DNA of 64,000 nucleotides from an uncultured Pseudomonadota bacterium. Its GTDB lineage: Bacteria > Myxococcota_A > Polyangia > Polyangiales > Sandaracinaceae. Below are positions 3,207-60,883 of this stretch, piece by piece; position 1 is the first letter of the stretch; every line of letters begins with the position of its first letter. A program made the translations under genes and the position numbers. Where the stretch lies: assembly GCA_963832725.1 (NCBI GenBank), contig CAWHVG010000001.1, positions 1,389,928-1,453,927 on the forward strand, given 5' to 3'. The notes below the pieces were generated by a model. It was not told the origin of the DNA. It saw only the letters and a list, made by a program, of their open reading frames with translations, and did no database searches.

Positions 3207-4224
3207 ATGCGATTCTCCGACGTCGTCATCGCCGCGCTGGCCAAGGCCGAGGCGCCGCACCGCGTGAGCACCGCCGCGCTCGAAGCGCGCTTGAACGGTC
3301 ATCTCGCGCGGCTCGGCCTCCTGCCGGGCACGCTGGCGGCCCTCAGCGGCATCGAGGCGAGGCACTTCTGGGACGAGGACACGCCCCCGAGCGCCGGCGC
3401 CACGCTGGCCGCCGAGAAGGCGCTGGCGGCGGCGCGCGTGGACCGGGCGCGCATCGGTGTCCTGATCAACACGTCGGTCTCCCGCGACTACGTCGAGCCC
3501 TCCACCGCCTGTCTGGTCCACGGCAACCTCGGCCTCGCGCCCGAGTGCCTGAACTTCGACCTGAGCAACGCCTGCCTCGGGTTCCTGAACGGGATGGAGC
3601 TGGTCGCGCAGATGATTCGAGCGCGGTCAGGTCGACTACGGCCTGGTGGTGGACGGCGAGAGCTCGCGCTTCGTGGTCGACAAGACCCTGGAGCGCCTCT
3701 CCCAGCCGGACGCCACGCCCCAGACGCTGCGGGAGAACATCGCCACCCTCACCCTCGGCTCCGGCGCCGCGGCCGCCGTGCTCACCCGCGCCGACCTGGC
3801 GCCCGAGGGCGCGCGCTTCGTCGGCTCGGTCATGCTCGCGGCCAGCGAGCACAACCACCTCTGCCGCGGGCAGGCGGATTGGATGCGCACCGACACCACC
3901 GGCCTGCTCACGGCCGGGCTGGCGCTGGCCGGCCGCACCTTCGAGAAGGCCCGGGTCGAGCTCGGCTGGTCGATCGAGCGGCTCGATCACGTGGTGATGC
4001 ACCAGGTCAGCCGCGTACACACGGAGCAGCTCGCGAAGGCGCTGGGCGTGCCGCTCGAGAGGGTGCCGGTGATCTACCCGGAGCACGGCAACGTCGGGCC
4101 GGCGTCGGTGCCGATGACCCTGGCCCGCGCGGCCGAGATCGGGCGGGTGCGACGAGGCGATCGCGTCGCGCTGATGGGCATCGGCAGCGGCCTCAACTGC
4201 GCGATGGCGGAGGTGGTGTTTTGA
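3207..4224 (+). CDS. oleA: OleA, FabH-like thiolase for head-to-head acyl condensation; frame broken at 3614-3618
   Basis: The N-part (frame of ORF 3195..) and C-part (ORF 3646..4224) together give a full-length OleA-type protein with INTSVSRDYVEPSTA, FDLSNACLGFLNGM, LCRG, HQVS, GNVGPASVP and GIGSGLNCAMAEVVF. Removing one base from GATTC at 3614-3618 restores MIERGQVDYGLVVDGE. Confidence 0.85.
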
Positions 4225-5120
4225 AGGCGGTCCCGCACGAGCTCTACCCCTTCGCGCCGCATCACTTCGACGTCGGCGGCGCTCGGATGCACTACCTCGA
4301 CGAGGGGCAGGGCGAGCCCGTCGTGATGGTGCACGGGAACCCGACCTGGTCGTTCTACTACCGGAACCTGGTGAAGGCGCTCCGCTCCGATCACCGCTGC
4401 ATCGTCCCCGACCACGTGGGGATGGGGCTGAGCGACAAGCCGGACGACGACCGCTACGACTACACCATCGAGCGGCGGGTGGCGGACTTCGGCGCCCTGC
4501 TCGAGGAGCTCGGCGTCACGCGCGACGTGACCCTCGTCGTCCACGACTGGGGCGGCATGATCGGGATGGCGTGGGCGGCGCAGCATCCCGAGCGGGTGGC
4601 CCGGCTCGTCATCATGAACACCGCCGCCTTCCCCCTGCCGAGCGACAAGCCCTTCCCCTGGCCGCTCTGGCTGACCCGGACACCGCTCGGCGCGCTCTTG
4701 GTGCGGCGCTTCAACGCGTTCAGCGCCGTCGCCTCGCGGGTGTGCGTGACGCGGACGCCGATGCCACGCGAGGTGCGGCGGGCCTACACCGCGCCCTATG
4801 ACAGCTACCGAGATCGCATCGCCACCTTGCGCTTCGTGCAGGACATCCCGCTCGCGCCGGGCGACCGCGGCTGGAGTCTGCTGGAGCGCACGGCCGAGGG
4901 ACTGTCGAAGCTGGCCCACCTGCCCGCGCTGATCTGCTGGGGCGACCGCGACTTCGTCTTCGACCACGCGTTCTTGCGCGAGTGGCGCCACTACCTGCCC
5001 GAGGCGCGGGTCGTACGCTTCCCGGACTGCGGCCACTACGTGCTCGAGGACGCGGCGGACGAGATCGTGCCCATGATCCGCCGCTTCCTCGACGAGCACC
5101 CGCTTCCGCCGCGGGCCTGA
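4221..5120 (+). CDS. oleB: OleB, alpha/beta-hydrolase (beta-lactone decarboxylase, haloalkane-dehalogenase-like)
   Basis: C-terminal 300 aa of fused ORF 3195..5120. Motifs HGNPTWSFYYR, VVHDWGGMIG and a C-terminal GHYVLED. TTG start at 4221 overlaps the oleA TGA (TTGA). Confidence 0.8.
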   Translation: MKAVPHELYPFAPHHFDVGGARMHYLDEGQGEPVVMVHGNPTWSFYYRNLVKALRSDHRCIVPDHVGMGLSDKPDDDRYDYTIERRVADFGALLEELGVTRDVTLVVHDWGGMIGMAWAAQHPERVARLVIMNTAAFPLPSDKPFPWPLWLTRTPLGALLVRRFNAFSAVASRVCVTRTPMPREVRRAYTAPYDSYRDRIATLRFVQDIPLAPGDRGWSLLERTAEGLSKLAHLPALICWGDRDFVFDHAFLREWRHYLPEARVVRFPDCGHYVLEDAADEIVPMIRRFLDEHPLPPRA

Positions 5121-5192
5121 CGGGTCAACCCGGATCGTTCACCAGAACCTCCGCTGGTTCCGAAGGGATCGGTTTTCACGAGCCTTCCCGAC

Positions 5193-9972: not shown

Positions 9973-10633
9973 ATGGTGCGCCGGAGAGCGCTCCGGCATC
10001 CTCGGGCGATGCGGATACACCTCCGGCTCTTCGACCTGGCGAGCGGCGACCTGATCACGGAGGGGACCTTCGAGTCGCCCTCGCTGACCATCTCGTCGGA
10101 CACCCGGATGGCGGACTTCACCCACCCTCGGCTGCGCCACACGCCCACCTACGAGATCACGAGCGACGGCTACCACGCGACGATCCGCAACCAGTCCGCG
10201 AGCGAGCGCCTGCGGCGCAAGAACACCCTCCAGATCGACGACGACCTCGTGCTGAAGGTGGACCTCTACCCGCGCCCGGACGCCGTGCCACCGGTGCGCG
10301 GCGCGTGCCCGAGCTGCGGAGGACCGCTCAGCCGCTCGCAGGTCGGCGGCGCGTATCGCTCGGTGGCGCGCGAGGAGCATCGTTGCGGCGAGTGCGGCAC
10401 GGCGGTGCTGGCGCTCCGCGACGCGAGCTCCGCGCTCGGCCAGTTCGTCGATCAGAGCGCGAGCGACTGGGTCACGGTCACGGTGGCGTTCCGCTGCCCG
10501 CAGTGCACCGAGAGCATGCTCCGCTCGAATCTTCCGCAGCGCGCACGGCGAGGCGCAGGTCGAGCGATGCGCGGGCTGCCAGCTCGTGGTGGTCGAGCCG
10601 GAGGACGAGGCCCGCCTCCGCGGCGAGCGCTGA
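9973..10633 (+). CDS. hypothetical protein with two CxxC...CxxC zinc ribbons; frame broken at 10527-10531
   Basis: MRIHLRLFDL... carries CPSCGG...CGECG and then CPQCTESM. The next frame supplies AHGEAQVERCAGCQLVVVEPEDE and a stop at 10631-10633, completing the second ribbon. Deleting one A of GAATC joins the frames. Confidence 0.6.
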
Positions 10634-13515: not shown

Positions 13516-14491
13516 ATGGCGAATGTGTCGGCGTTGGTGGTGAGTTGGACGATGGTGATCCGGACGGTGGTGACATCCATCCGGCACAACTCGGACGTGG
13601 TCGCGTCCGGTGCCGAGGCGGTCTTCTACCCCGACGGCCCTCCGGAGAGCGGGCGCTTACGCGCGCTCCTCATCGCGATGGCCGATACGTTGGAACGCCT
13701 CCTCGAGGAGCTCGCCACGCGTGAGAAGGAGCTCGAGATGGAGCGCGGCGACGACCCTGCCGTCCGCGAGGACGACCGAAGCGCCTACTCCGCGCTCCGC
13801 GCGCGGATCATTCGCACCCGCTCGATCATCGATGGCGCGTTCGGTCCCGCCATCGCCGCCAAGCTCGGCTTCACGGGCGAGACGCCCGAGAACGAAGACG
13901 CGCTCGCGCAGTACGCCGGCACGGCGATCGAGGCGCTCCGCGCGGGTGTGCTTCCGGAGCCCGGCGACGACGGCGTCACGATCGACGCCGGCCGCTTGGC
14001 CGATCAGAATCGAGGCGGACTCGACGGCCCTGAAGAACGCACAGCGCGCGGTGGCCGAAGAGGTGCGTCAGGCGCAGACGGCCATCACGGCGCGAGACGA
14101 CGCGGAAGCCACGCTGCGCGGCGCCTACGTCGGCATCGCCGACACGTTCACCGCGTGGGCCCTCCTCGCGGGCCGCCCGGACATCGCCGATCGGGTCCGG
14201 CCCACCGCGCGCCGTCGCGCGGGGCTGCCCGAGGCGACCGACTCCGAGTCCTCCGGCGCCACCCAACCCACCGCCACCCCGGGCACGGGGCCCAAGACAC
14301 CGGAGGCCAGAGCACCGGAGGCCAGAGCACCGGAGCCCAGAGCACCGGAGCCCAGGGCGGGAGCGCTCCGTCCGGCGCCGAGAAGAAGCTCGTCGACGGA
14401 TCCACCGGCGGCTGACCCGCAGGGGCCAGAGGCCCCGAACGATGGGCGTGCCGCCCGATCCGCGGCACGCCCATCATCCGTCTCCACCTGA
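13516..14491 (+). CDS. hypothetical protein with P/E/A/R repeat tail; frame broken at 14007-14011
   Basis: AAGGAG sits 10 nt upstream of ATG 13516. The N-part is in the frame of ORF 13486.. and the C-part in ORF 13610..14491 (IEADSTALKNAQRAVAEEV...). Removing one A of GAATC gives GRLADQIEADST. Confidence 0.55.
14300..14359. repeat. 15-bp x4 in-frame tandem repeat (PEARA/PEPRA)
   Basis: ccggaggccagagca x2, then ccggagcccagagca and ccggagcccagggcg. Confidence 0.85.
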
Positions 14492-14654: not shown

Positions 14655-16338
14655 ATGCTCGAGGAGCCCTCTGTGCCCGATCCGGCGGCGCCCATCGTCA
14701 ACGTGGCCGCGCACCTCCCGCGCGTGGCGGCCGCGCAGCCCTATGCGCCGGCCATCTTCGCGCCCGACGGGCACGACCGCCGCGGCCGCACGCGCTACAC
14801 GCACCTCACCTACCGGCAGCTCGACGAGGCCAGCGATCGCATCGCCCGCGGGCTGCACGCCGTCGGCATCGAGCGAGGCACCCGGGTGGCGCTGATGGTG
14901 CGCCCCTCGCTCGAGCTCTTCAGCCTGACCTTCGGCCTCTTCAAAGCGGGCGCGGTGCCGGTGCTGATCGACCCGGGCATCGGCCTCGGCAACATGAAGT
15001 CCTGCCTGGCCCGGGCCCGTCCCGAGGCGTTCATCGGCATCCCCGCCGCCCAGCTCGCGCGTTTGGTGCTGCGCTGGGGTAAGGGCACCATCCGCACCGT
15101 CATCACCGTCGGCCCGCGCGGCCCCTGGCTGAGCCTCGACGAGGTGGAGCGGCGCGGTCGAAGCACCGGCGACGCGCTCGCGCCGACCGCCCCCGACGAT
15201 CTCGCCGCCATCCTCTTCACCAGCGGGAGCACCGGCGCGCCCAAGGGCGCCGTCTACACCCACGGCAACTTCGCCGCCCAGGTCGACGCCATCCGGCGCA
15301 TGTACGACATCCGGCCCGGCGAGGTGGATCTCCCGACCTTCCCCCTCTTCGCGCTCTTCGATCCGGCGCTCGGGATGACGACGGTGATCCCGGACATGGA
15401 TCCGACGCGCCCCGCCCAGGCCGATCCGGAAAAGATCGCGCGCGCCATCGACGACTTCGGCGTGACCAACATGTTCGGCTCGCCCGCGCTCTTGAACACG
15501 CTCTCCCGCTGGGGCGAGGCCGAGGGCGTCCGCCTGCGCTCGCTGCGGCGGGTGATCAGCGCCGGCGCGCCCGTCCCGGCCCGGGTCATGGCCCGCGTGC
15601 GCGGCATGCTCTCGTCCGACGCCGCGGTCGTGACCCCCTACGGCGCGACCGAGTGCCTGCCGGTGGCCAGCATCGAGAGCCGCGAGGTGCTGGGCGAGAC
15701 GGCGGCGCGCACCGACGAAGGCGCCGGCGTCTGCGTCGGCCGGCCGGTGCCCGAGGCCGAGGTGTCGATCATCTCGATCACCGACGCGCCCATCGTGCGC
15801 TGGAGCGACGCACGGGTGCTCGGGCCCGGCGAGATCGGCGAGATCACCGTCCGCGGGCCGATGGCGACGCGGCGCTACTTCGAGGACGCGCACCACACGG
15901 CGCTGGCGAAGATCGAGGGCGACGAAGGCGAAGGGTTTCGCCACCGCATGGGCGACCTCGGCTACCTCGACGACCAAGGCCGCCTCTGGTTCTGCGGCCG
16001 GAAGAGCCAGCGGGTCGAGCTCGCGGACCGCACGCTCTTCACCATCCCCTGCGAGGCCGTGTTCAACGCGCACCCCGACGTCTTCCGGAGCGCGCTGGTC
16101 GCCGTCGAGCGAGCGGGCCGGCGCCAACCGGTCGTCTGCGTCGAGCTCGAGCGGCAGGCGACGCGGCAGAGAAGCGAAAGTGCTGAGCGAGCTGCGCGAG
16201 CGCGCCAGAGCCCACGACCACACGCGCGAGCTCGACACCTTCCTGGTCCACCCGGGCTTCCCGGTCGACATCCGCCACAACGCGAAGATCCGGCGCGAGG
16301 CGCTGGCGCGCTGGGCGAGCGAGCAGCGCGCGCGATGA
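14655..16338 (+). CDS. oleC: OleC, AMP-dependent ligase family (beta-lactone synthetase); frame broken near 16145-16175
   Basis: FTSGSTGAPKG and YGATE adenylation motifs. The true C-terminus KVLSELRERARAHDHTRELDTFLVHPGFPVDIRHNAKIRREALARWAS is in the +1 frame and ends at TGA 16336-16338. The long ORF 14655..17327 is a frame-shift fusion with oleD. Confidence 0.85.
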
Positions 16339-17327
16339 AGGTCTTGGTGACCGGCGGCGGCGGCTTCCTCGGCGGCGCGGTCGTGGAGCGATTGATCGCG
16401 CGCGGCCACGAGGTGCGGAGCTTCAGCCGCGGCCGCTACCCTGCGCTCGACGCGCTCGGCGTCGAGCACGCGCGCGGCGATCTGGCCGACGCGGGCACGG
16501 TGCGGGAGGCGGCCAGCGGCTGCGACGCCGTCGTGCACACGGCGGCCAAGGCGGGCGTGTGGGGCGAGGACGAGGACTACCGGCGCGCCAACGTAGTCGG
16601 GACGGAGAACGTGCTGGCGGCCTGCCGCGCGGCGGGCGTCTCGAAGCTCGTGTACACCAGCACACCGAGCGTCGTGCACCAGGGCGGCGATCTCGAGGGC
16701 GGCGACGAGTCGCTCCCCTACACGACGCACCCGTCGACGGCGTACCAGGCCACCAAGACCGAGGCCGAGAAGGCCGTGCTGGCGGCGAAGAGCCCGTCGC
16801 TGTCCGTGGTGGCGCTGCGGCCGCATCTCGTCTGGGGGCCGGGCGATCCGCATCTGGTTCCGCGCATCATCGCGCGCGGTCGTCGTGGCCTCATCGCGCT
16901 CCCCGGCGGCGGCCGAGCCCGCATCGATACCATCTACGTCGACAACGCCGCCGACGCGCACCTGGCCGCGCTCGACCGCCTCGAGCCCGGCGCCGCCTGC
17001 GACGGGAAGGCCTACTTCATCACCAACGGCGACCCGCGGCCGACCCGCGAGATCGTGCTCGGCATCCTCCGCGCGGCCGGCATCGACGCCCGCGTGGTCC
17101 CGGTCTCACGCCGCCTCGCCCACGCGGCAGGCGCCGCCATGGAGACGGCGTTCCGGCTCGCCGCCATCGAGCACGAACCGCCCCTGACCCGCTTCGTGGC
17201 CGAGCAGCTCTCGACCTCGCACCACTTCCGCATCGACGCCGCGCGTCGCGATCTGGGCTGGACGCCGGTCGTCTCCATCGACGAGGGCCTCGAGCGCCTC
17301 GCCGCGTGGTTCGAGAGCCGCCGCTGA
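16335..17327 (+). CDS. oleD: OleD, NAD(P)-dependent 3-beta-HSD/epimerase family reductase
   Basis: MKVLVTGGGGFLGG Rossmann motif and YxxxK (YQATK). The ATG overlaps the oleC stop (ATGA). Confidence 0.85.
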   Translation: MKVLVTGGGGFLGGAVVERLIARGHEVRSFSRGRYPALDALGVEHARGDLADAGTVREAASGCDAVVHTAAKAGVWGEDEDYRRANVVGTENVLAACRAAGVSKLVYTSTPSVVHQGGDLEGGDESLPYTTHPSTAYQATKTEAEKAVLAAKSPSLSVVALRPHLVWGPGDPHLVPRIIARGRRGLIALPGGGRARIDTIYVDNAADAHLAALDRLEPGAACDGKAYFITNGDPRPTREIVLGILRAAGIDARVVPVSRRLAHAAGAAMETAFRLAAIEHEPPLTRFVAEQLSTSHHFRIDAARRDLGWTPVVSIDEGLERLAAWFESRR

Positions 17328-18084: not shown

Positions 18085-20104
18085 TTGCGCCGCGTCCCCG
18101 TCCTCGCGTTCGTCTTCCTCGGCGCGGTCCTCCTCTTCACCCTCGAGCCGCTGGTCGGCCGCCTCCTGCTGCCGCGCTTCGGCGGCGCGTTCCACGTCTG
18201 GACGACGGCCCTGATGTTCTTTCAGGGCGCGCTCTTCGTGGGCTACCTCTACGCGCACCTGATCGCGCCGCGGATCGGCCGCTGGCACCTGCTGGTCATC
18301 GCCCTGCCCGCGCTCCTCTTGCCGCCGTCGATCGGCGACGGAGCCGCCGGCGTGGCGAGCGTGCCGGCCATCCTCGCGCTGCTCCTCCGCTACATCGCCC
18401 TCCCCTTCGTGGTCCTGTCCACGACGGCGGTGGTGGCCCAGCGCTGGTGGGCGCGGATGGGACGCGAGCCCTACGCGCTCTACGCCGTCAGCAACGCCGG
18501 CTCGTTGGGCGCGCTCTTCCTCTACGCGCTGGCGGTGGAGCCCTTCGTCGGGCTGCACGTGCAGCGGCTCGCCTGGACCGGCGCTCTACGCCGTCTTCGC
18601 CGTCCTCGCCGTGCTGGCTTGGCGCACGACCCACGGCGCGGGCACCCAGGACGCAGAGGAGGACGCGACCGCCCCGGCCGAGCCCGTCCGCGCCGGCACC
18701 CTGGCCTACTGGGCGCTCCTGAGCGCCGCGCCCTCGGCGTTCTCGATGGCGGTCACCAACCTGATCGCGCTCGAGGCCGGGAGCATCCCGCTGGTCTGGG
18801 TCGTGCCGCTGGCGATCTACCTCGGCAGCTTCGTGGTCGCGTTCGCGAGCCCGAAAAAGGGCGATCCCGCCGGCACGCGCGTTCCCGGACTGGTCCGTCG
18901 CCTGTGGCCGCACGTCGCCGCCGTCGGCATCTTCTTCTTCAGCGGCGGGGACGCCGGCGGTGGCTGGATCGACGTCGCCGTCCACCTGGTCACGCTGGCG
19001 TTCGTGTCGCTGGCGGCGCACGGCGAGCTCTACCGGGCCCGCCCGGAGCCCGCGCGCCTGACCCTCTACTACCTGGTCATCGCGCTCGGCGGCTGGGCCG
19101 GCGGCGCGTTCGTGGCGCTCTTGGCGCCGTGGCTCTTCCGCGGGCTCTACGAGTACCCGATCGCGCTGGCCGTCCTGGCGCTGACCATGATGGTCGGCCG
19201 CCGGCGCGAGCTCCGCGCCTGGCTGAAGACCTCGCCCGTCGGCGGGCTCGTGGCGTCGGCCGCGCTGGTCGCGGTCATCGTCCTGAAGATCGGCCAGGCC
19301 TCGATGGACAGCGACCCCAGCGAGACCCTGGAGGTGCGCCGCAGCTTCTACGGCCTCTACCGGGTCACCCGCACGCCGCGGGGCGACGGCGCCATCCGCG
19401 ATCTGGTCAGCGGCACCACCCGCCACGGCCGCCAGCGCGAGGGCGATCTCACGCCGCTGAGCTACTACCACCCGCGCGGCCCGCTCGGCGACGCGATGCG
19501 GATGGTGCAGCCCGAACGGGTCGGCGTGGTCGGCCTCGGCGTGGGTGCGACGGCGGCGCACCTCGAGCGGGGCGAGCGCATCCGCTACTTCGAGATCGAT
19601 CCGGCGGTGGTCGAGCTGGCGCGGCGCCACTTCACGTATTTGAGCGGGACGACGGCCGAGGTGGACGTGGTGATCGGCGACGCGCGCGTCTCGCTCGAGC
19701 ACGAGACCCGGCGCGGCGCCCCGGAGTACGACCTGCTCCTGGTGGACGCCTTCGCGGGCGACGCCATCCCGACCCACCTGGTCACGGTGGAGGCGATGCG
19801 CGTGTACCTCTCGCGCCTGCGGGACGGCGGCCTGCTCCTGCTCCACACCTCGAACCGCTACTACGATCTGCGCGGGGTCCTCGCCGCCAACGCCCGCGTG
19901 CTGGGGCTTCAGGGGATGGTCGTCTCACGCGCCGATCACCTGGCGCGGGATCAGGACGGCGCCCAGTACGTCGCGCTGGCCCGCCGTGCGGAGACGCTGG
20001 CGCCGCTGCGCGAGGACGGCTGGAGCCCCCTGATGCGAACGCCCGCGGCCGGCGCCTGGACCGACGACCGGATCAACGTGCTCGAAGCCCTCTTCGCGCC
20101 CTGA
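18085..20104 (+). CDS. polytopic membrane protein fused to spermidine-synthase-like methyltransferase fold; frame broken near 18578-18586
   Basis: The N-terminal TM region (ORF 18085.., TTG start) continues in ORF 18611..20104 as LYAVFAVLAVLAW. The C-terminus has VGVVGLGVGATAAHL, DLLLVDAFAGDAIPTHL and a spermidine-synthase-like core. Confidence 0.7.
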
Positions 20105-21432: not shown

Positions 21433-22542
21433 ATGAGCACCCGATGCGAACGATGTGGCGAGCCCGCGAGCCCCCTCGAGGGCGCGAGCCACGTCTTCTG
21501 CGAGCGCTGCGCGTCCATCGCGTCGACCGGCGCCCGCGACTCGAGCGAGCTCCTCTTCACGGCGCCGCCGATGAACCGCGAGAGCCGTGAGGATCTGAGC
21601 GCGCTGGCCAGCCCGAGCGCGCCGACCGACGAGCCGCTCGACCTGAGCCCGCTCCTTTCCGTCGCCAAGCCGGCGATGGCACCGCCACCCCGGCGACGCG
21701 GCCACTTCGCCGGTGCGCTGGCGGTGGGGATCGCCGCCATGCTCGTCGCCGGCTCGGGCGCGCTCGCCTGGCACGCTGTGCGGCCGGTCCGCAGCGCCGT
21801 CGCCGTCCGGCAGGCCGGGGCCCTCGCCACCGCATCCGCTCCCGAGCGCGCCCGAGCTCATGCGCTGCACGCTCCCGCGCTCGGAACGTCCGCCCGCGAA
21901 CAGACGCCGACCGAGCCCCGCGAGAGCCTCGCACCTCCGCCCCCCAGCGCGCCGGCGACCCGCGCCGCTGCGACGTCCGCCGGCTCGATCTCCGCCGGCT
22001 CGATCTCCGCCGGCTCGACCTCCGCCGGCTCGACCTCCGCCGGCTCGATCTCCGCCGGCTCGACCTCCGCCGGCTCGACCTCCGCCGGCTCGACCTCCGC
22101 CGGCTCGATCTCCGCCGGCTCGACCTCCGCCGGCTCGACCTCCGCCGGCTCGACCTCCGCGACCCGCGCCGTCACAGCCCGCTCCCCCGCTCCGCGACGA
22201 GCCCGCGCCCAGACGGCGCGAGAGCCTCTCATCGCCGCGCTGGCGCCGATCACCACCGCGCAGACGCCGCGTCCCGCCCTCGATCCGCTGCCGGGCCGGA
22301 GCGCCGTCCGCGACGCGATGGATGCGGTCGCCGAACCGATCGCGCAGTGCGCCGAGGGCAGCCACGGCCTGGTCCACGCCCGCGTGACCTTCCTCGGGAG
22401 CGGCCGCGCCGTGCACGCCGAAGTAGTCGACGCCAGCTTCCCCCCTGCCGTCCGCTCGTGCATGGCCAGAGCGTTGCGAAGCGCGCATCTGCCCGCCTTC
22501 GGCCGCGACCGCTTCACCATCGCCTATCCCTATCGCCTCTGA
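21433..22542 (+). CDS. zinc-ribbon / single-TM protein with SAGS[IT] repeat linker and TonB-C/AgmX-like C-terminal domain
   Basis: GGAGG sits 5 nt before ATG 21433. CERCG...CERC ribbon, then TM FAGALAVGIAAMLVAGSGALAW, 12 SAGSx repeats, and a C-terminal ...HARVTFLGSGRAVHAEVVDASF...RFTIAYPYRL domain. Confidence 0.65.
   Translation: MSTRCERCGEPASPLEGASHVFCERCASIASTGARDSSELLFTAPPMNRESREDLSALASPSAPTDEPLDLSPLLSVAKPAMAPPPRRRGHFAGALAVGIAAMLVAGSGALAWHAVRPVRSAVAVRQAGALATASAPERARAHALHAPALGTSAREQTPTEPRESLAPPPPSAPATRAAATSAGSISAGSISAGSTSAGSTSAGSISAGSTSAGSTSAGSTSAGSISAGSTSAGSTSAGSTSATRAVTARSPAPRRARAQTAREPLIAALAPITTAQTPRPALDPLPGRSAVRDAMDAVAEPIAQCAEGSHGLVHARVTFLGSGRAVHAEVVDASFPPAVRSCMARALRSAHLPAFGRDRFTIAYPYRL
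21976..22155. repeat. 15-bp x12 perfect-register tandem repeat (tccgccggctcgaYc) encoding SAGSI/SAGST
   Basis: Read directly. The unit order by variant is I I T T I T T T I T T T. Confidence 0.9.
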
Positions 22543-23115
22543 GCGCGAGGCATCCTCGGCGTCCCGTCTCGAGAGACGTCCACAGAACGGATCCTCGGCC
22601 CAGCTCGAGCCACGTTGGCGCGGGCACACGAGACCAGAGAAGCGAACACGGTTCACTTTCAAAACATATCGACATGAGGACACGGAACAATCCACGACAC
22701 GACGAACCCACCATCCGTGAACCGCCGCCGAAATCGGCCACTCGAGGTCAGCTCGTCCCGTTCCAGACGGAGCGACGCGCCACCCGAGTCGAAACCGGCG
22801 ACGCGCCTCGGGGCCGCTGTGCTCAGGAGGGTGGGTCCGAGCGTCCCCGCGTCTTGCACTGTCCAGCCTGCCACGCGCGCCTCGCCGTGCGCGTCTTCCC
22901 GACTCGCGCTCGATTGCGGCGTTTGAACACCAACTCCCCCGGGCCCTCGCGCGGATGGCGGATGCCACCGAGCGTGTTCCGCGCCCGTCTCGCCTCGCTG
23001 GTACCACCGCCGCCACCCAACACGACTCTCCACTGGCGGCCCACTCGCGCGAACGCGGCCATGTGATCCCATGCGCTCGGCTTGGGGGTTGACGCCGGGC
23101 GCGGCTGGGGGCGCA

Positions 23116-24103
23116 ATGGATCTCGTGCCATCGCTCCGCACCCTCGCGCCCCTCCTCCTCGCCAGCCTCGCGCTCGGCGGCTGTTTCCTCGACCGCAGGC
23201 CTCGACTCGAGCCGGGCGACGCGGGCGGGTCGGACGCCGGCCCCCAGCTTTCCGGGAGCGATGGCGGAGCGCGCGACGCGAGCGGGCCCCCGCCGCCCCG
23301 TGACGCCGGGGCGACGGCGGACGCCACCACGCCGCGACCGGACGCCGGGCAGCACGTCGACGCCGGCCCCTGTGGCTCGGGGCCGGACAGCGACGGCGAC
23401 GGAGTGGTCGACGCCTGCGACGTGTGCCCAGGCGGTGACGACACGGCGGACGCCGACGGCGACGGCGTCCCCGACCACTGCGACATCTGCCCCGGCGGCG
23501 ACGACACGGCGGACGCCGACGGCGACGGCGTCCCCGACCACTGCGACATCTGCCCCGGCGGCGACGACACGGCAGACGCCGACAGCGACGGCGTCCCCGA
23601 CCACTGCGACATCTGCCCCGGCGGCGACGACACGGCAGACGCCGACAGCGACGGCGTCCCCGACCACTGCGACTCGTGGCCCTGCGGGACCCTCCCGACG
23701 GTGCCGGCGACCGTCTCGCAGGATCACATCGACGTCTCCAACGTGCTCCTCGGGGGAGGCGGCGGCGCGGGCAACACCGTCGTCGCAGCAGCCGGCTCGA
23801 GCCTGCGGCTCCGCTTCGACTGGGCCATCGACGACACGGGGTGCGCGGGCTGCGTCGACCAGATTCGAGATCGGCACCGCGCCCGGCGACCGCCTCTTCT
23901 GTTCCTATGACGGCAACCCGCCCGGCTCGGGCGCGAGCGGCTCGGAGGACCGCACCATCACGGTCCCCGACGCATCGGGCCCCGTCGAGCTCCGCTTCAA
24001 CCTCGGCCAGAACTACGGCTGCACCTACCGCGGCGCGAGCACCTGGTGGGACGCCCCACCCGATGCCGCCAGCACCTTCGGGGTGATCTGCGTCACCCCC
24101 TGA
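23116..24103 (+). CDS. lipoprotein with thrombospondin type-3-like Ca-binding repeats; frame broken at 23862-23866
   Basis: MDLVPSLRTLAPLLLASLALGGC lipobox. Four DxCPGGDDTADADxDGVPDHC repeats. The C-part continues in ORF 23261..24103 (EIGTAPGDRLFCSYDG...). Removing one T of GATTC gives CVDQIEIGTAPGD. Confidence 0.7.
23419..23670. repeat. 63-bp x4 near-identical tandem repeat (TSP3-like units)
   Basis: The gacatctgcccc unit recurs at 23482, 23545 and 23608. The first unit (gacgtgtgccca) starts at 23419. Confidence 0.85.
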
Positions 24104-40754: not shown

Positions 40755-41851
40755 TGCGGCGCGCCCTCTCGACGTCGAGCCTCGCCCTGATGCTGGCCGC
40801 TTGCGGCACGGCGCCGGTGGATCCGCTCGGCGGCGGAGGGCGCGCGATCACCGCTGAGCCCGTCCCTTTCGACGCGGACGGGCTCACGCCACCCCTCTCC
40901 GTGCCCGCGTTCGACGGCGAGTCGGTGACGTTGTGGGCGCGGAGCGAGCCGGGCACCTGCTTCGCGCTCGCCTCGCTCGAGGACGCCGCGGGGCGTGCCT
41001 GGGTGAGCGCACGCGATGCGGGCCCCTACTGCAAGCGCTGCGACCTGCGGACCTCGGTCGCGGTCGACGAAGCGCTCTTCGTGCTGCCGGCCGGCGACGA
41101 CTTCGCGCCCGCCGGAGGGCTGACGGCGCGCTTCGGGCGGATGCGCTGCGACACGCTGACGCCCTTGCGGGAGGCGAGCCAGGCCGGGATCGAGCTCTCC
41201 TTCGCGCCGCGCGCCACGATCCCGGCGCGAGGAAGCGTGAGGCTGCGCTTCTTGGTCTCCGAACACTCGATGCTCTTCCAGCACGCCGACGTGCAGCGCG
41301 AGCTGATCGACCACCTGAACGACGAGCTGGCGGCGGCGGGCCTCGAGGCGAGCTTGGCCGCATCTTCGCCACTGCCGGACGTTCCCGCGGAGAGCGTCTT
41401 CTCGACCACGGATTTCACCGCGCTGACCGCCCTGCTCGAGCAGGCGCCGCCGCCGCACGACCAAACGGTCGACGTCGTCTTCGCGGGCTGCCTCCGCTAC
41501 GACGATCCCTTCTTCGGCCCGCCGACGTCGGTCGACGGCTACACCCCGCGCGTCGTGGGAGGCGGCGGCCCGGCGAGCGCCGTGTTCATGCCCGGCCTGC
41601 GCTGCGACGCGCCGTCGGATCAGCCCGCGAGCTGGCGGCTCGATGTCTACGCCCATCTGCTCGCGCACGAGCTGGGCCACTTCCTCGGCCTCTATCACAG
41701 CGTCGAGCGCGACGGCACGACCGACCAGCTGAGCGACACGAGCGAAGCCAACATCATGTACTACGACCCGAACCTCGCCTCCGCGAGCGGCTTCAGCGCG
41801 AGCCAAGCCCACCTCATGCGGAGCCACCCCTTCGTCCGCGAAGCGCCGTAG
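40754..41851 (+). CDS. metzincin-type zinc metalloprotease lipoprotein (M43/pappalysin-like)
   Basis: The ATG overlaps the upstream TGA (TGATG). LALMLAACG lipobox. HELGHFLGLYH matches HExxHxxGxxH, with a downstream Met-turn-like NIMYY. Confidence 0.75.
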   Translation: MRRALSTSSLALMLAACGTAPVDPLGGGGRAITAEPVPFDADGLTPPLSVPAFDGESVTLWARSEPGTCFALASLEDAAGRAWVSARDAGPYCKRCDLRTSVAVDEALFVLPAGDDFAPAGGLTARFGRMRCDTLTPLREASQAGIELSFAPRATIPARGSVRLRFLVSEHSMLFQHADVQRELIDHLNDELAAAGLEASLAASSPLPDVPAESVFSTTDFTALTALLEQAPPPHDQTVDVVFAGCLRYDDPFFGPPTSVDGYTPRVVGGGGPASAVFMPGLRCDAPSDQPASWRLDVYAHLLAHELGHFLGLYHSVERDGTTDQLSDTSEANIMYYDPNLASASGFSASQAHLMRSHPFVREAP

Positions 41852-42060
41852 TCGGCAGCACCCAGCGACACACGGGATCGACGGAGCGAGTCGAGCCCCG
41901 ACGGCCCTTCGAGCGAAGCTCCTCGAACGCGACGTGGCGCGACGACCGGCGGAAGGTTCGCCGATCGTCCGCCGCCTTCGCCGAGTCCCAGCCGCGCGCG
42001 CACGTCGGACGGATCCCCCGCTACGAAACGGCGGGGAAAGCGAGTATCGTGGCGGGTTCG

Positions 42061-42340
42061 ATGAATGCCGGGGACACGCTCGTGGGTCGGTTCGAGCTCC
42101 ATGAAACCGTCGGCCAGGGCGGCATGGGCCAGGTGTTCCGGGCCACGGACCTGACGACCGGGCGCACCGTGGCCGTGAAGCGCATGACCTCGACCGATGC
42201 CTCGCTCGCCCAGCGCTTCCTGCGCGAGGCGCGGCTGCTCTCGTCGCTCTCGCACCCCCCGCCTACGAGATGCTCACCGACGAGGACCGAACGAGCGCGC
42301 ACCGCGCGGCCGCGCAGTGGCTCTCGAAGCGCACGCTCCC
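42061..42340 (+). pseudogene. Ser/Thr protein kinase remnant (N-lobe only, joined out of frame to a distal fragment)
   Basis: LVGRFELHETVGQGGMGQVFRATDLTTGRTVAVKRM...FLREARLLSSLSHP stops being kinase-like after subdomain III. The next frame reads AYEMLTDEDRTSAHRAAAQWL, typical of the far C-terminal part of large kinase/ATPase proteins. No catalytic loop or DFG motif is present. Confidence 0.65.
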
Positions 42341-42384: not shown

Positions 42385-42735
42385 GAGACCCGCGATACGC
42401 GTTGCACGCGATGCAAAGCCATCCGGGAACACCCGGAATACGCTTTACATCCATTGCAAAGCCATCCGCGGGCCCTGTGATACGCGTTACATCCGGTGCA
42501 AAGCCATTCCGGAACACCCGAGATACGCTTTACATCCATTGCAAAGCCATCCGCGGGTCCCGCGATGCGCGTTACATCCGGTGCAAAGCCGTCCGAGAAC
42601 ACCCGGGATACGCTTTACATCCGTTGCAAGGCGCTCCCGGGGAACCCCGATACCGCTTTGCAACCGTTGCAAGGTGGTCCCCCGGAACCGTCGGAGGCCA
42701 ATACAGCCGCTGCAAGGCGCATCGCGGGTCGCCCC
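42385..42735. repeat. tandem array of about 8 units with alternating 43/42-bp period (85-bp dimer), lower GC than surroundings
   Basis: The ATACGC anchor recurs at 42395, 42438, 42480, 42523, 42565 (atgcgc), 42608 and 42650, with a degenerate copy at 42701. Unit core is GATACGCKTTACATCCRKTGCAAAGCCRTCCG. Confidence 0.85.
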
Positions 42736-43250: not shown

Positions 43251-44947
43251 TCACCGAGAAGGCGACGACGAAGCGCGCACGAAGACGACCGCGACCTCGT
43301 CCCGAAAGACCTCGCGCCAGCCAGGATCGCCCGACAAGCGCACCACGAGCGAACGCGCGCGAGCCGAATCAGCCGGCATCAGCACCGTGTCGACCTCGTA
43401 GCGCTCCGCGAGCTGCTCGAACATCGCCGCGCTCCCGTACGCCGCCGCGAAGCGCAGCAAGAAGCCCTCCGGGTAGAGCGTGATGGCGCGCCCGTCCACG
43501 AACACCGGCACACCCTCGTAGATCAAATAGCCGCCGAAGTTGAACGCGTTGTAGACGCGCGTCGTCGCGCCGGTAGCGCGCATCGCGCGGACGGCGGCGA
43601 CAGGGAAGCGCGTCTCGTCGAGCCCGAAGCCGGGCCGCAGGATCGGCCGCCCTCCCGCGCGCCACGCCACGACGGCGACCATCACCGCGAGCGCTGCCGC
43701 GGAGAGCGCGCGAGGGGACAGGCGCGACGCGAGCCTCGAAAGCGGCCGTACCGCGCTCGGGAGCCAGAGCGGCATCCCGGCGATCACGAAGAGCGACAGC
43801 CCGCGGTACGACATCGACAGCGCCGCCACCACACCGATCAGCACGAAGACCGCCTCGACCCGCTCGTACGCGCGGGCGCTCGAGCCCCGTTCCTCGCATC
43901 CATCCGCACCGACGCGTCCGCCGTCCCCGGCGACGCCGGACGCGTCGGTGCGCCGAACGTCGCCCGGGACGCTGGCGTCGTCGACGTCATCGGGACGCCC
44001 GTCATCGCGCGCACCGGCTCGAAGCTCGCTGTGGGGCCGCGCCGACGCGGCGGCCGCGGACTCGCGAGCCTCCGAGGAGCCCGGGAGCTCCCCGTTCGCG
44101 ACGGCGCCCGAGGAGACGGCGCCGGGCCGGAAGCACAGGACGGCGCCCACGACGGCGAGGAGCAGCAACGCGCTCACAATCCATCCGTCCGCGCTCGCGA
44201 CGAGCCCCGCGAGCGAGACCGGCGCCCACTCCGCGATCGCGCCCTGCATGAACCCGCCCGCGTGCGCGCCGATCAGCGCCGCCGCGTTCCGCCCGAACGC
44301 CGCGAACATCAGCACGATCAGCGCCGTCGGTGCCATCAGCCGCCGCGCCCGCCGGCGATCGCCGCGCACCATCCACGCGACGAGGAGCGCCGTCGCGACG
44401 ACGGGCACCAGCGCGTGCGTCGCGTGCGTCGGCAGCAGGAGCGCGTAGAGGGGCGGGACACATCCACACACGCCGGCTCCCCGGGTCGCGCCCCGACGTC
44501 GAGCAGCGCGTCGAGGGCGAACACGATCAGGAGCGAAGCCAGCAGGCTCGGGCGCGGCGCCAGCGCCGCCGTCTCGGCCACCAGCGCGAGGAGCGCGAGC
44601 GACGCCGCGATCTCCACACGCGCGCCTCGTCGCACCGCGCTGGCGACACCGGCGAGCGCCAAGGCGGCCGTCAGCACGACCTGCCAGGCGACGACGCCGG
44701 CCCAGCCCGCCGCGCCATGGGCGAGCGCCAGCGTGACCTGCGCCAGCGGCGAATGATCGCGCCAGGGGGCGCCGTGAAACGTGAACGAGAAGGGATCGCG
44801 CGACGGCACTGCGGCGTGCGCCAAGATCCAGCGCCCCGCCGCGACCTGCCAGGGCGTGTCGACGTCGCGGACGAGCGACGCGACGCACGCGCCGGCGGCC
44901 AGCGCCACCAGCGCGAGCCAGAGCCGCCGCCGGCCCGCCTCGCTCAT
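43251..44947 (-). CDS. polytopic membrane protein (possible lipid-linked glycosyltransferase-like); frame broken near 44465-44500
   Basis: The N-part is ORF 44336..44947 (MSEAGRRRLWLALVALAAGAC...). The C-part is ORF 43251..44888 from VPPLYALLLPTHATHALVPVV. More than 8 hydrophobic helices plus a soluble C-terminal domain. The shift is -1 here. Confidence 0.55.
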
Positions 44948-49326: not shown

Positions 49327-51038
49327 GTGATCAAAGCGCTCATCGTCCCATTCCTCTGTGCTTCGTGCGTGCTCGGCGCGAGCGGCTGCTGTTGCGGATT
49401 GCCCGGTGGCGTCGTCATCGGGCACGACGCGGGGTACGAACCCCCGACGTCCGACGCCGGGCGCCGCCCGCCGACGCCGCGCGATGCCGGCGCGCCGCGC
49501 GACGCCGGCACCCTGGTCCCAACCTGCATGCAGACAGGCCAGGCAGCCGGGCGGTGCATCGACGGCACCTTCTGCACCGACCTCTCGTGCACCGGCGAGG
49601 TCACCCATGCCGACGGGGCCCCGTACACCCTCTCTAATCTCGGCTACACCTGCCGTGCGCCCGACCCGGCGAATCCCGACGCGTACGTCTCCATCGACTG
49701 CGACGTCCCGCTGCCCTTCGCGCCGGGCGGCCTGTGCGCCGGAGGCTGCGCACCGACGACATCGGTGCGCGACGAGACGTGCCCGCCCTGCGCCACCTGC
49801 AGCGCGAGCCTCGGCGACGGGAGAGGGCTGACCTCGACTCCCCTGACCGTGCGAGCGCTCGCCTCTCCCACCAGCGACGCGCAGCCCGGGATCTGTCGCG
49901 CGAACTGCGTCTTCGAGCCGACCACCTCCGGCTGCCAGGCGGGCTACACCTGCTCGGTCGCCGAGAACGTCTGCCTCGAGGCGTGCGTCTCCGACGCGCT
50001 GTGCAACGTGCGCTGGAAGCTGACCTCGCGCCACGACGGCCTCGCGGCCGTGGTGGACGGGAGCGCGAGCTGCAATCTGGACACCGGTCGCTGCCAGTGG
50101 ACGCCGCCGGCGGGCGCGAGCTTCGGCTCGCCCTGCCACTCCGACACCGACTGCCCGGCCGACGTGGGCGTGTGCCTCGGCGGCTGGTGCACGACCTACC
50201 AGTGCAACGCGACCGACCGCATCGGAAACCCGCTCTACCCCTGCCCGAGCAGCCACGTCTGCGTCGGGTTCGGCGGCAACATGGGCGCGTTCTGCCTGGC
50301 CCTCTGCAACTCGGCGGACGACTGCCTGCCCGGCCTCGCCTGCACGCCGCAAGCGGGGCTGCCCGGCGGGACGACCGGCCTCTGCTACCCGGGCTGCGAG
50401 AGCGACGACGCGTGCCGGAGCACCGAGGCCTGCAACCTCGGCGCCCTGTCGGTGGACCTCCCGGGCGCCCCCCCCTCGGCGGGCCTCCGGGGCGCCTGCG
50501 AGCCGCGATGCACGCCGGGCGGCACCGACTGCCCGAATCGGCGCGCGCTGCGTCCAGGTCACGGGGCAAACCTACGGCTTCTGCCATCCGCTCCAGCAGC
50601 TCTGCCTGACCGACCGCGCGTGCGGCGACGGCTTCGCCTGCGAAGTGCTCGCCGACGACGGCGCGCGGGATCTGCGTGACCGGGTGCGCGAGCGACGCCG
50701 ACTGCGACGCCGGCGAGCGCTGCGGCACGAGGCCGGGAGGCGAGCCGTGCGTACGCGGCGCCGACTGCCCGAGCGGCATCTGCGAAGGATCGATCTGCGC
50801 GCCGAGCGCGGTCGGCGTGTGCCGCGCGCCAGGGGGTTCATGCGCGCCGTCGCCGGACCGGAACGGCGACGAAAAGCCCGACATGCCTCTCCGAGGCGAT
50901 GCGCAATGCGTCGGCGATCAGCGATGCGATGCGAGCGCGCCCGGTGCGCTCGGCCGTTGCGCGTCGCCGATCGACGGTGGCGTGCCCGACGGCGGCTGGC
51001 CCGACGGTGGCGCCGACGCCGGCGCGGACGCCGGCTGA
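49327..51038 (+). CDS. cysteine-rich secreted lipoprotein; two frame breaks (50535-50539 and 50667-50672)
   Basis: GTG start and a signal peptide with a Cys cluster. Three frames join as ...TDCPIGARCVQVTGQTYGFCHP...ADDGARICVTGCASDADCDAGERC... and end at 51038. Repeated C-x-D-x-D-C-type modules. Confidence 0.65.
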
Positions 51039-58743: not shown

Positions 58744-59148
58744 TCCGGTCCTCCAGCGGGCACCGGATTGCAACCGACGTTCCTCTCCGCGCTGCACGGC
58801 TTGGGCCCTTCGGGCGCCGCGCCGAAGTCCAACATGCGTACAGGTGTACGGGGGACGTACGGTGTCGGACCGCGGCGGCCCCGCCGCTCTGCCCGCCTCG
58901 AGCGCGGCTGCGCAGAATCGGCCGCACGCCTCGCGTTTCGGCGGCCTCGCTCGCATGCCAGGGGCGGGTCGGCCCGCATCCGCTGCACCGTCAGCTCGGC
59001 TCCGACGACACTGCCGCCGCGTGGTCGCTCCCGAGCCACGCTCCGGTGCATCCCTCACGCACGCCGTCGACAGCGACGTCGTGAGCCGCCGTGGCGCACG
59101 CGCTGGCGGACGACACGCAGGAGGCGACCGAGACCGCCTCTTCCGCGC

Positions 59149-60883
59149 TCACATGCGCTCGGGCGCCTCGATGCCGAGCAGCGAGAGGCCGCGGGCGAGC
59201 TGACGGCGGGTGAGATCCACCAGCGCCAGCCGGCTCTCGCGGACCGCGCCTTCGCTCTTGAGCACGGGGCAGTGCTCGTAGAACGCGAAGAAGACGCGCG
59301 CGAGACCGTAGAGGTGCTCGGCCACGTAGTGCGGGTAGCACTGCTCGGCGGCGCTGTGGACGACGTCCGAGAGCTTCATCAGCCGCCGCGCCAGCGCGAG
59401 CTCGTAGGGGTCTTCGAGCCGCAACCGGTCGGCCGTGAGCGCCGCCGTGTCAATCTCGCCCTTGCCCAGGATGCTGCAGCAGCGGGCGTGCGCGTACTGG
59501 AGATAGGGCCCCGCGTTGCCGCTGAAGCTGATCAGCTTGTCCCAGTCGAACTTGTAGTCGCTGGTGCGGTTCTGACTGAGGTCCGCGTACTTCACCGCGC
59601 CGATGCCGACGGGCCGCGCGAGGTCGCCGGCCATCTCGGCGGAGAGCGAGAGCGGCTCCTGTTGCATCAGCGCCGCCGCGCGCTCCTCTGCCTCGTCGAG
59701 GAGGCTCGAGAGGGTGATGGCCGTGCCGTCCCGCGTCTTGATCGGCTTCGCATCCGTGCCCAGCACGGTCCCGAACCCGACGTGCTCGAGCCGCATGTCG
59801 ACGCCGAGCAGGCGCATCACCTCGAAGAGCTGCTCGAAGTGGCCCGCCTGCCGCTTGTCGACGACGTAGAATCGCCCGCTCGGTGCCCCAGCGCTCCTGC
59901 CGGTAGAGCACGGTGGCGATGTCGGTCGTCGAGTAGAGGAAGGCGCCGTCCTTCTTCTGGACGATGAAGGGCACCTTCTGCTTTTTGAGCTTCCCTTCGA
60001 CGGCCTCGAGCTCGTTGAAGAAGACGCAGAGCGCGCCCTGATCGTCGCGCGCGATGCCCTCGTCGCGGAGCTTCTGCACGACGCCGGACAGCATGTCGTT
60101 GTAGGCGCTCTCGCCGAGCCACTCGTCGAAGTGGACGTCGAGCCGCTCGTAGATCGTGTCGAGGCTCTTGCGCGTAGCCTCGACGAAGTGCTCCCAGAGC
60201 CGGTGGTTCTCGGCGTCGCCGGACTGCAGCTTGGCCAGCTCGGCGCGCGCCTTCTCGGCGAAGTCCTCGTCCTCCTTGGCCTTCGCCGACGCGAGCTTGT
60301 AGACGCGCTCGAGCTCGACAATCGGATTCCGCTCGAGCGCCTCTTCGGAGCCCCACTCGCGCATCCCCACGATGAGCAGGCCGAACTGGGTGCCCCAGTC
60401 GCCGAGGTGGTTGTCGCCGATGACCTCGTGACCGGCGAAGCGCAGGAGGCGCACCAGCGAGTCGCCGATGATGGTCGAGCGCAGGTGCCCGACGTGCATC
60501 TGCTTGGCGATGTTGGGGCTGGAGAAGTCGACGACGACCTTCTCCGGCGTCTCGACGCTCGGCACGCCCTCGCGCTCGCGGTCGACCAGCGCCTCGCCGA
60601 GGCGGGCCGCGATCCAGGCGTCGTCCAGGCGCAGGTTCACGAACCCGGGGCCGGCCACCTCGGCTTTGGCGATGGCCTCGTGCTCGGCCAGCTCGTCGGC
60701 CACCGGCTGGGCCAGCTCGCGCGGGTTCTTCTTCAGCCGCTTGGCGAGCGGGAGCACCCCGTTGACCTGGTAGTCGCCGTGCTTCTCGTCCTGCGTCGCG
60801 CGCACGATGGCCGGCGCGTCCACCGAGAGGACGTCGCGGATGGCCTCGGTCGCCAGGGAGTCCAGGAAAGGCTCGATGCGCAT
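59149..60883 (-). CDS. argS: arginine--tRNA ligase; frame broken at 59879-59883
   Basis: [21 protein letters not shown] (HIGH region), then [12 protein letters not shown] and the C-terminal anticodon-binding domain ending in M. ORFs 59450..61672 and 59149..60321 join as ERAIYVVDKRQ when one base of GAATC (GATTC on the coding strand) is removed. Confidence 0.9.

Follow-up and report, generated by a model that had tools for sequence, protein, structure and literature searches.

In the 64-kb stretch of DNA analysed here (the window), eight genes are interrupted at a GAATC or GATTC pentamer, with the reading frame moving +1 at each. This pattern most probably reflects errors of sequencing or assembly that are specific to the motif, rather than the biology of the organism. 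With high confidence, the eight breaks are not mutations of the organism but errors of the deposited consensus, in each of which GATC has gained a central A or T. An artefact had already been proposed in the first-pass annotation, and this reading is well supported by the one-base indels in essential genes, by the intactness of the ORFs after repair and by the GATC present in relatives. GATC would have been called with an extra central A or T, giving GAATC or GATTC, and the gene-caller would then have split the gene; besides these eight errors at GATC, there would be about ten other insertions of one base at other places.

Frame breaks in the window

The genes of the window show a GC content at codon position 3 (GC3) of 0.93, the GC content quoted for the genome being 72%. 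Frame breaks were located with two independent frame HMMs, one based on GC by codon position and the other on codon usage, and both put +1 transitions at the eight places. Fine-mapping relied on the A/T phase, the register in which A and T fall on third codon positions, on either side of each break. This phase analysis replaced codon-likelihood profiles, which were dropped because they were too noisy: they put the breaks at 23862 and 34397 some 45–80 nt off the pentamer, and homology later placed the 34397 break at the pentamer itself.

The tally in the window was 15 break points, or about 18 single-base insertions if three net −1 transitions are taken as double +1 events, which is close to the count of about 19 given in the first-pass annotation. 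About 15 of roughly 55 genes (about a quarter) are broken, by one-base indels only. The error profile is indel-only, with insertions in all or nearly all breaks and no clear deletion found among those of the window. The codon and GC3 signals are intact on both flanks of every break, with no decay of codon bias, and no in-frame stop was found in the repaired ORFs, every one of which is otherwise intact. None of the 17 homopolymers of at least 6 nt in the window is broken. Essential genes are found among those affected (argS and aroC, each single-copy in the window), and both oleA and oleC, which belong to one pathway, are broken. An apparent break near 609xx was HMM noise upstream of the start of aroC at 61085.

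These observations bear on the possibility that the insertions are real DNA, produced by a GATC-targeted +1 mutational process acting across a myxobacterial genome and leaving many fresh pseudogenes. A DpnI-like blunt cut (GA^TC), followed by non-homologous end joining with one untemplated A, would leave a GAATC or GATTC scar. Such a route would account for the insertion lying exactly at the palindrome centre and being always A or T, as an A added to the 3′ end of either strand gives just that, and the breaks are present in the sequence as deposited. However, argS and aroC are broken despite being single-copy in the window, about 15 of about 55 genes are broken without nonsense codons, larger deletions or codon-bias decay, and insertions of the same size co-occur at sites other than GATC. 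Moreover, if the genome measures about 10 Mb, the same rate would imply more than 1000 double-strand-break scars, beyond what a free-living cell could survive. We therefore hold real mutation to be very improbable.

The broken products P0241 and P0259 are found in public protein collections, on a 1,492,602-bp NCBI/ENA contig. Since products broken in this way were deposited from a contig of 1.49 Mb, the artefact is taken to lie in the consensus of the assembly as deposited, and the single contig of this size fits an assembly from single-molecule long reads.

The eight pentamers

Seven of the pentamers lie where the first-pass annotation had placed them (GATTC at 3614, 23862, 34397 and 40079; GAATC at 10527, 14007 and 50535). 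The eighth, a GAATC, is also present, but at 59869–59873, 10 bases to the left of the position 59879 given before. Deletion of the middle base restored GATC at every site, and the repaired translation yielded each of the peptides quoted earlier and an intact gene each time. GAATC and GATTC are split 4:4. At seven of the eight sites the A/T phase changes within the pentamer's own A/T triplet, the exception being 40079, where it only bounds the break to 40070–40105. At four sites, in oleA, the beta-propeller/cytochrome c lipoprotein gene, the HEAT-repeat protein gene and argS, the extra base is pinned to the pentamer by homologues, which require Ile or Asp-Arg there.

The oleA gene (3195–4224, + strand) carries GATTC at 3614–3618, with an extra T in ATG ATC GAG (Met-Ile-Glu). 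The Pfam domain ACP_syn_III continues across the junction, and the alignment with OleA of PDB entry 3ROW is gapless (...AQMIERGQVDY... in the window, ...ARMLERGEIDY... in the chain), so that a single residue (I/L) is placed between M and E.

In the beta-propeller/cytochrome c lipoprotein gene (33977–36477, − strand), GATTC at 34397–34401 (sense GAATC) corresponds to an extra A in CAG ATC GAG (Gln-Ile-Glu), and the A/T phase flips at 34398–34400. In the alignment, Ile follows a conserved Gln in 37 of 40 homologues, and the DNA of the relative L021 reads CAT CAG ATC GAA GCG CAG CCG, versus CTC CAG AATC GAG CCG CAG CCG in the window.

The gene for the HEAT-repeat protein (38915–40754, + strand) contains GATTC at 40079–40083, with an extra T in GTG GAT CGG (Val-Asp-Arg). 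The pattern [DN][RQ]xRAAxAL is conserved in 39 homologues, and EVDRARAA is identical in P0243; P0241 (475 aa) and P0259 (146 aa) of the public protein library are the two pieces into which the product of this gene is broken.

In argS (59149–60883, − strand), the GAATC (sense GATTC) corresponds to an extra T in GCG ATC TAC (Ala-Ile-Tyr). The Pfam domain tRNA-synt_1d is continuous over residues 98–447 of the repaired protein, RA[IVL]YVVD is found in 26 homologues, and the relative L001 has CGC GCG ATC TAC GTC GTC GAC AAG, versus CGG GCG ATTC TAC GTC GTC GAC AAG in the window. So, in both genes in which the DNA of the closest available relatives could be compared, argS and the beta-propeller gene, GATC stands at the exact spot. 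With respect to the distance of relatives, the 1277-aa M48 protein of the window found only relatives of at most 53% identity among species-representative genomes.

The same comparisons argue against programmed +1 ribosomal frameshifting, or recoding, at an A-W-T-C signal, by which the genes would be expressed intact as written. Although all the shifts go +1 and the same short motif recurs at them, as this explanation would have it, the homologues in relatives are single uninterrupted ORFs with GATC, 28 other coding GAWTC pentamers are read in frame, and a +1 skip at GAATC would yield Asn where homologues conserve Ile. The affected genes are unrelated and a shared flanking stimulator is absent. 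Programmed frameshifting is thus extremely improbable, even more so than real mutation. The need for Ile or Asp-Arg, encoded only with GATC, likewise ruled out GANTC (CcrM-type) as the true motif.

The other four sites were located by A/T phase and codon statistics alone. The gene of a double zinc-ribbon protein (10009–10633, + strand) has GAATC at 10527–10531; here the flip of the A/T phase falls between 10528 and 10530, with flanking bounds of 10525–10533, and repair gives ...CPQCTESMLRSIFRSAHGEAQVERCAGC, which completes the second CxxC pair of a product with weak zinc-ribbon Pfam matches. GAATC is also found at 14007–14011 in a gene of unknown function (13516–14491, + strand), where the phase flips at 14008–14010 (flanking bounds 13996–14013) and the repaired product reads ...RLADQIEADSTALK... 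The gene of a TSP3-repeat lipoprotein (23071–24103, + strand), whose product matches Pfam TSP_3, has GATTC at 23862–23866, with a phase flip at 23863–23865, flanking bounds of 23851–23868 and the repaired reading ...CAGCVDQIEIGTAPGD... Finally, the gene of a Cys-rich lipoprotein (49327–51038, + strand) has GAATC at 50535–50539, the phase flips at 50536–50538, and repair gives ...GGTDCPIGARCVQV... A C8 run 69 nt upstream of this pentamer was considered as the break point and was ruled out by the homopolymer check and the A/T phase. A chimeric query retrieved no homologues of these four lineage-specific proteins, a result that does not imply absence, because the word pre-filter was probably swamped; no match to the Cys-rich protein was found in metagenomes.

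Breaks outside the eight pentamers

A ninth break was proposed earlier in the same Cys-rich gene, and it is real. It lies at 50663–50670 (+ strand), within A/T-phase bounds of 50639–50671, and is most simply explained by a G or C added to the CGGG that immediately precedes ATC (GGGATC); its three-frame reading is ...EVLADDGA(R/G)ICVTGCASDADC...

The beta-propeller gene has a second break, at 35784–35790 (− strand) and away from GATC. Here the sense strand has GAAATTC for GAATTC, with an extra A: the PE[FLY][FY]G of 40 aligned homologues, or PDFYG in P0143, requires PEFFG (GAA TTC) at this place, and the DNA of a relative is CCG GAG TTC TTC.

Further +1 breaks without GATC were found in oleC (14655–16338, + strand), at 16150–16172 in the A/G-rich stretch CGGCAGAGAAGCGAAAG, and in a membrane protein gene, at 18577–18585 (+ strand), with an extra G or C in ACCGGCGCTC. 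In aroC (61085–62202, + strand), a net −1 transition clearly resolves into two +1 events, at 61604–61615 (CGCTCGACGC) and 61671–61682 (AGGCGGCGGC), neither of them at GATC. The net −1 transition at 44447–44496 (− strand), in a membrane protein gene, is probably composed of two +1 events in G/C-rich sequence, and that at 62913–62956 (+ strand), a region with CGATCG and C/G runs, is either one deletion or two +1 events.

Enrichment at GATC

Breaks coincide with GAWTC in 8 of 15–18 cases. The coincidence might be ascribed to chance, and GAWTC is indeed present in the window at close to the number expected from composition (44 observed, about 46 expected). Nevertheless, when only the flanking bounds from the A/T phase (8 to 35 nt) were used, the joint P was about 2e-17, which became about 1e-14 once the choice of 8 from 12 breaks was allowed for, while a conservative binomial calculation with 35-nt intervals gave 2.6e-9 for 8 or more of 19. 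Depending on how generous the intervals are, P is thus about 1e-9 to 1e-14; chance is rejected, its probability being negligible, and the enrichment asserted in the first-pass annotation is borne out.

A separate estimate starts from the share of GATC among all S-W-W-S tetramers, which is 14%, so that random insertion of A/T into such sites would give 0.143^8, or about 2e-7. Only a context-dependent subset of GATC is affected, namely 8 of about 427 sites in coding DNA (about 2%): 27 copies of GATCGAG and 29 of CTCGATC are intact, and the unbroken GATCGAG sites mentioned earlier were confirmed at 265, 538 and 895. GATC itself is neither depleted nor enriched in the window (452 observed versus 480 expected from a Markov model), and, being near expectation, its frequency has no bearing either way on methylation.

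Cause of the errors

The motif specificity would arise if GATC gave a signal other than the one anticipated by the base-caller or polisher. The most likely cause is N6-methyladenine in GATC on both strands, with roughly an even chance within the artefact explanation. Duplication would affect the base called at the modified A or opposite it, giving GAATC or GATTC, and the 4:4 split fits a strand-symmetric effect on a palindrome. GATC methylation is plausible, judging from this sequence pattern, in this Sandaracinaceae-like organism. Nanopore consensus errors are known to cluster at methylated motifs, GATC included (PMC12392509, PMC8442456, PMC12903679), and those published are mainly substitutions, or else ambiguous calls or errors of unspecified type (PMC12392509, PMC8442456, PMC12903679). 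Searches of the accessible literature turned up no report of an insertion that changes GATC to GAWTC, and Pfam scans of all coding segments of the 64-kb window revealed no DNA methyltransferase gene, Dam-like included. The published genome of Sandaracinus amylolyticus, from which the window is not known to come, was obtained from 85x PacBio data polished with Quiver, and methylation motifs do not appear in the text of that paper.

A motif-specific bias of the base-caller or polisher without methylation would yield the same pattern. Sequence context may bias the base-calling, consensus or polishing model, for example towards over-calling A/T where a genome of 72% GC has short A/T islands; alternatively, a model trained on Dam-methylated DNA may misread unmethylated GATC. 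An artefact of this kind, to which we give somewhat less than an even chance, disputes only the cause, and its probability is contained in that of the consensus artefact. It agrees with the occurrence of insertions in all or nearly all breaks, those away from GATC included, with the A inserted in GAATTC to give GAAATTC, and with the small fraction of GATC sites hit, as expected if a wider k-mer context matters. Besides, there is a report of hundreds of errors being introduced into an assembly by a polisher (PMC12392509). Given the roughly ten insertions away from GATC, one of them the A in GAATTC, a general A/T-island bias could explain some of the signal. On the other hand, GATC takes 8 of about 9 A/T insertions, far above its share of S-W-W-S; a generic A/T-island bias should strike CATC, CTTC, GAAG and GATG too; and the palindromic, strand-symmetric outcome suits a property of the site itself.

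Implications for the assembly

The main value of the finding concerns data quality, as a public Sandaracinaceae-like assembly contains a systematic, recognisable error. The errors split about a quarter of the genes of the window, and the split products P0241 and P0259 have already entered protein databases; if the rate of about 2% of GATC holds genome-wide, the false pseudogenes would number from hundreds to over a thousand. Three marks make up the signature: the frame changes by +1, a rare AAT or ATT codon has C after it, and G stands in front. Together they provide a simple rule for flagging and repairing sites without reads. As for GATC modification in this little-studied myxobacterial family, the pattern is a cheap, testable hint, to be taken as a lead and not as a result.

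Comparison with known systems

The closest parallel is with nanopore errors at methylation motifs (Dcm CCWGG in Klebsiella, Dam GATC and strain-specific motifs), in which one short palindromic motif recurs, only a subset of its copies is affected, and the errors, being systematic, survive consensus and fragment genes (PMC8442456, PMC12392509, PMC12903679). Unlike the substitutions or ambiguous calls published for them, the change found here is a clean one-base A/T insertion at the centre of GATC, for which methylation is a putative cause. A Dam-type GATC methylation, by an orphan methyltransferase or a restriction-modification system, has the same target sequence and would supply a modified base that disturbs the single-molecule signal on both strands; unlike such a system, the window has no methyltransferase gene and its GATC frequency is unremarkable.

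The homopolymer indel errors of long reads are similar in being single-base, in creating artificial frameshifts and pseudogenes, and in their density of about one per 3–5 kb, but here the target is a non-homopolymer tetramer, insertions replace the usual deletions, and long runs are spared. Lastly, the large number of frameshifted genes resembles genuine pseudogene decay, as in Mycobacterium leprae or recent symbionts. Real decay, however, mixes nonsense mutations, deletions and lost codon bias and spares essential genes, whereas the window shows +1 events only, in otherwise perfect ORFs, with argS and aroC among those broken.

Frame breaks at GAATC and GATTC pentamers

Eight genes are broken by a +1 frame jump at a GAATC or GATTC pentamer (GAWTC), and these breaks are very probably a consensus artefact of the deposited sequence. 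The window has 71.9% G+C, rising to 0.93 at codon position 3, so that each A or T strongly marks the frame in use. Two frame-tracking HMMs, the first tracking G+C at each codon position and the second codon log-odds trained on the long ORFs of the window, both gave same-strand +1 transitions at 3614, 10527, 14007, 23862, 34397, 40079, 50535 and 59869. In the A/T-phase analysis, A/T bases falling on position 3 were compared between the left-hand and right-hand frames. At seven sites, right-hand-frame violations ended and left-hand-frame ones began within the A/T triplet of the pentamer; at 40079 the break was bounded to 40070–40105 only. Seven of the pentamer coordinates in the first-pass annotation stand as given, while the GAATC of argS lies at 59869–59873 and not at 59879. 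Deletion of the middle base of each pentamer recovered every peptide quoted there. GAATC and GATTC are split 4:4 on the plus strand and also relative to the gene strand. Protein searches found no homologues for 10527, 14007, 23862 and 50535, where the assignment is plausible on composition-phase evidence and peptide plausibility; at 10527, for example, repair completes the second CxxC...CxxC zinc ribbon.

Two affected sites have a second, intact GATC 4–8 nt away (13999–14011, GATCAGAATCGAG; 23862–23875, CAGATTCGAGATCGG). After repair and orientation, four of the eight read GATCGAG, too small a sample for an extended-motif call.

The window contains 452 GATC, 22 GAATC and 22 GATTC. When the break intervals were set by the flanking A/T-phase bounds only, ignoring the pentamer's own bases (8, 8, 17, 17, 23, 35, 23 and 17 nt), the probability that every one of them contains a GAWTC was ~2e-17. 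With all intervals at 35 nt, the probability of at least 8 in 19 breaks was 2.6e-9. If the frame tracker were merely drawn to A/T triplets, the value for 8/8 would be ~2e-7, as GAWTC makes up 44 of 300 S-WWW-S sites (GATC, 452 of 3164 S-WW-S sites). The enrichment beyond chance proposed earlier is thus real. With 452 copies observed and 480 predicted by GAT x ATC / AT, the abundance of GATC is uninformative on cause.

Homology at the break points

Repaired OleA aligned without gaps to Xanthomonas OleA (PDB 3ROW; window NGMELVAQMIERGQVDYGLVVDGE, chain NGMDIAARMLERGEIDYALVVDGE), so exactly one residue, with ATTC as codon source, lies between M and E. In repaired ArgRS the catalytic-domain match was unbroken, and alignment with 26 homologues gave RA[IVL]YVVD; its nearest proteins are at most 82% identical and come from metagenome-assembled genomes (MAGs) of Sandaracinaceae and Polyangiales. 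The beta-propeller/cytochrome c lipoprotein (break at 34397, minus strand) was compared after repair of both its breaks and has a homologue at 76% identity. In 37 of 40 aligned homologues Ile follows a conserved Gln at the junction, hence the surplus base must be one of the two A in AATC. Members of the HEAT protein family share a conserved [DN][RQ]xRAAxAL, and one homologue has an identical EVDRARAA, which makes the surplus base a T of GAT-T-CGG.

The nearest relative at the DNA level was the MAG GCA_046128665.1. In argS it reads CGC GCG ATC TAC GTC GTC GAC AAG (window, CGG GCG ATTC TAC GTC GTC GAC AAG), and in the beta-propeller gene CAT CAG ATC GAA GCG CAG CCG (window, CTC CAG AATC GAG CCG CAG CCG). 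The state to be expected at either site is thus GATC. Programmed +1 frameshifting at the eight sites is contradicted by the uninterrupted homologues, by the GATC of relatives and by 28 GAWTC pentamers elsewhere that are in frame; moreover, it would imply Asn for Ile at GAATC sites. Concerning the motif, GANTC (CcrM-type) was excluded, as the conserved residues are encoded by GATC only.

Other frame breaks and gene integrity

Reading the three frames at each same-strand frame change gave 15 break points, eight of them at GAWTC. The others were in oleC (~16150–16172, an A/G-rich stretch), a membrane protein gene (18577–18585, surplus G or C), the minus-strand beta-propeller gene (35784–35790) and the Cys-rich lipoprotein gene (~50663–50670, surplus G or C in CGGG adjoining ATC), plus net -1 transitions at three places, near 44450, 61675 and 62925. 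The one near 61675, in aroC, resolves cleanly to two +1 events (61604–61615 and 61671–61682), and the other two are probably alike. The total of ~18 single-base insertions nearly matches the count of about 19 breaks in the first-pass annotation, whose ninth break is the one in the Cys-rich gene. All resolvable breaks in the window were single-base insertions, with no clear deletion, and no gene had an in-frame stop codon.

At 35784–35790 the window reads GAAATTC where homologues, all with PE[FLY][FY]G or PDFYG, require PEFFG, which corresponds to a surplus A in GAATTC. This second A/T insertion is at another palindrome, intact just twice in the window (8554 and 32567). It may reflect the same error process or hint at one not strictly GATC-specific.

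About one quarter of the window genes are split, including the single-copy essential argS and aroC and, from one pathway, oleA and oleC. Each split is due to 1-base insertions alone; the ORFs show no other defect, and codon bias keeps its full strength before and after every break. This indicates consensus error and not gene decay and, together with GATC in the relative, strongly supports the artefact interpretation put forward earlier. Real GATC-centred insertion scars, e.g., from blunt GA^TC cleavage and end-joining, would result in the same pentamers, but neither the breakage of essential genes nor the extent of the damage can be reconciled with them, which makes them extremely improbable.

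Two products of the broken HEAT-repeat gene (38915–40754) came up when 1.84 billion representative proteins were searched in full with HMMER: P0241 (475 aa), read past the break into the wrong frame with an 84-residue out-of-frame tail, and P0259 (146 aa), the downstream fragment. The artefact has thus already spread to protein databases as separate proteins. Both are in NCBI and ENA on a single 1,492,602-bp contig, a size that suggests long-read assembly. The biological novelty of the eight breaks is nil; their practical value is a quality flag and repair rule for assembly GCA_963832725.1 and, possibly, for others from the same pipeline.

Gene content and repeats

Pfam annotation of all coding segments showed the ole (olefin biosynthesis) cluster in two pairs ~9.5 kb apart, oleA-oleB (3195–5120) and oleC-oleD (14655–17325), with insertion errors in both oleA and oleC. 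The pairs are separated by the gene of an M48-peptidase membrane protein and by several lineage-specific genes. A PAS/GAF histidine kinase, an NB-ARC/TPR protein, AdoHcy hydrolase, LMF1, STIG1-like Cys-rich proteins, argS and aroC were also annotated. No DNA methyltransferase gene was found among the coding segments of the 64 kb.

Of a Ser/Thr kinase domain at 41840–42238, apparently just the N-terminal ~65 residues are encoded before the coding signal is lost. Directly downstream, a non-coding tandem array (42388–42689) has ~7 copies of the 43-nt unit ACCCGGGATACGCGTTACATCCGTTGCAAAGCCATCCGCGAAC with 75–87% matches (alternative period, 85). A 68-nt direct repeat (28132–28276; 2.1 copies, 94% matches) at the 3' end of the histidine kinase gene extends beyond the stop and may have arisen by duplication or as a stutter in assembly. 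Two repeats are coding and in frame: a 15-nt unit x12.7 giving (EPAEV)n (21971–22160), in a gene of unassigned function, and a 63-nt unit x4.6 giving TSP3-like DADGDGVPDHCDICPGGDDTA (23384–23673), in the lipoprotein broken at 23862.

Possible origin of the insertions

A systematic signal disturbance at GATC, dependent on wider context, would fit the motif specificity, the 4:4 palindrome symmetry and the small affected fraction (~2% of GATC). N6-methyladenine (m6A) at GATC would be its obvious candidate source, with a roughly even chance of being the cause within the artefact explanation, and putative GATC methylation in this organism is plausible. The same pattern would be given by a methylation-independent model bias, or by a model expecting methylated GATC but meeting unmethylated DNA. 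A polymerase pause opposite m6A could also yield duplicated pulses in SMRT reads; no demonstration of this was found in the literature searched. Nanopore consensus errors at methylated motifs, including GATC, are documented (PMC12392509; PMC8442456; PMC12903679). The literature searched describes substitutions or unspecified errors, and the GATC to GAWTC insertion signature is absent from it.

The window has 17 homopolymers of at least 6 nt, among them the C8 run at 50468, 69 nt from the 50535 site; all are in frame and no break falls at any of them. Homopolymer deletions are typical of nanopore-type error, for which in-frame homopolymers and resolvable breaks that are all insertions make an unusual profile.
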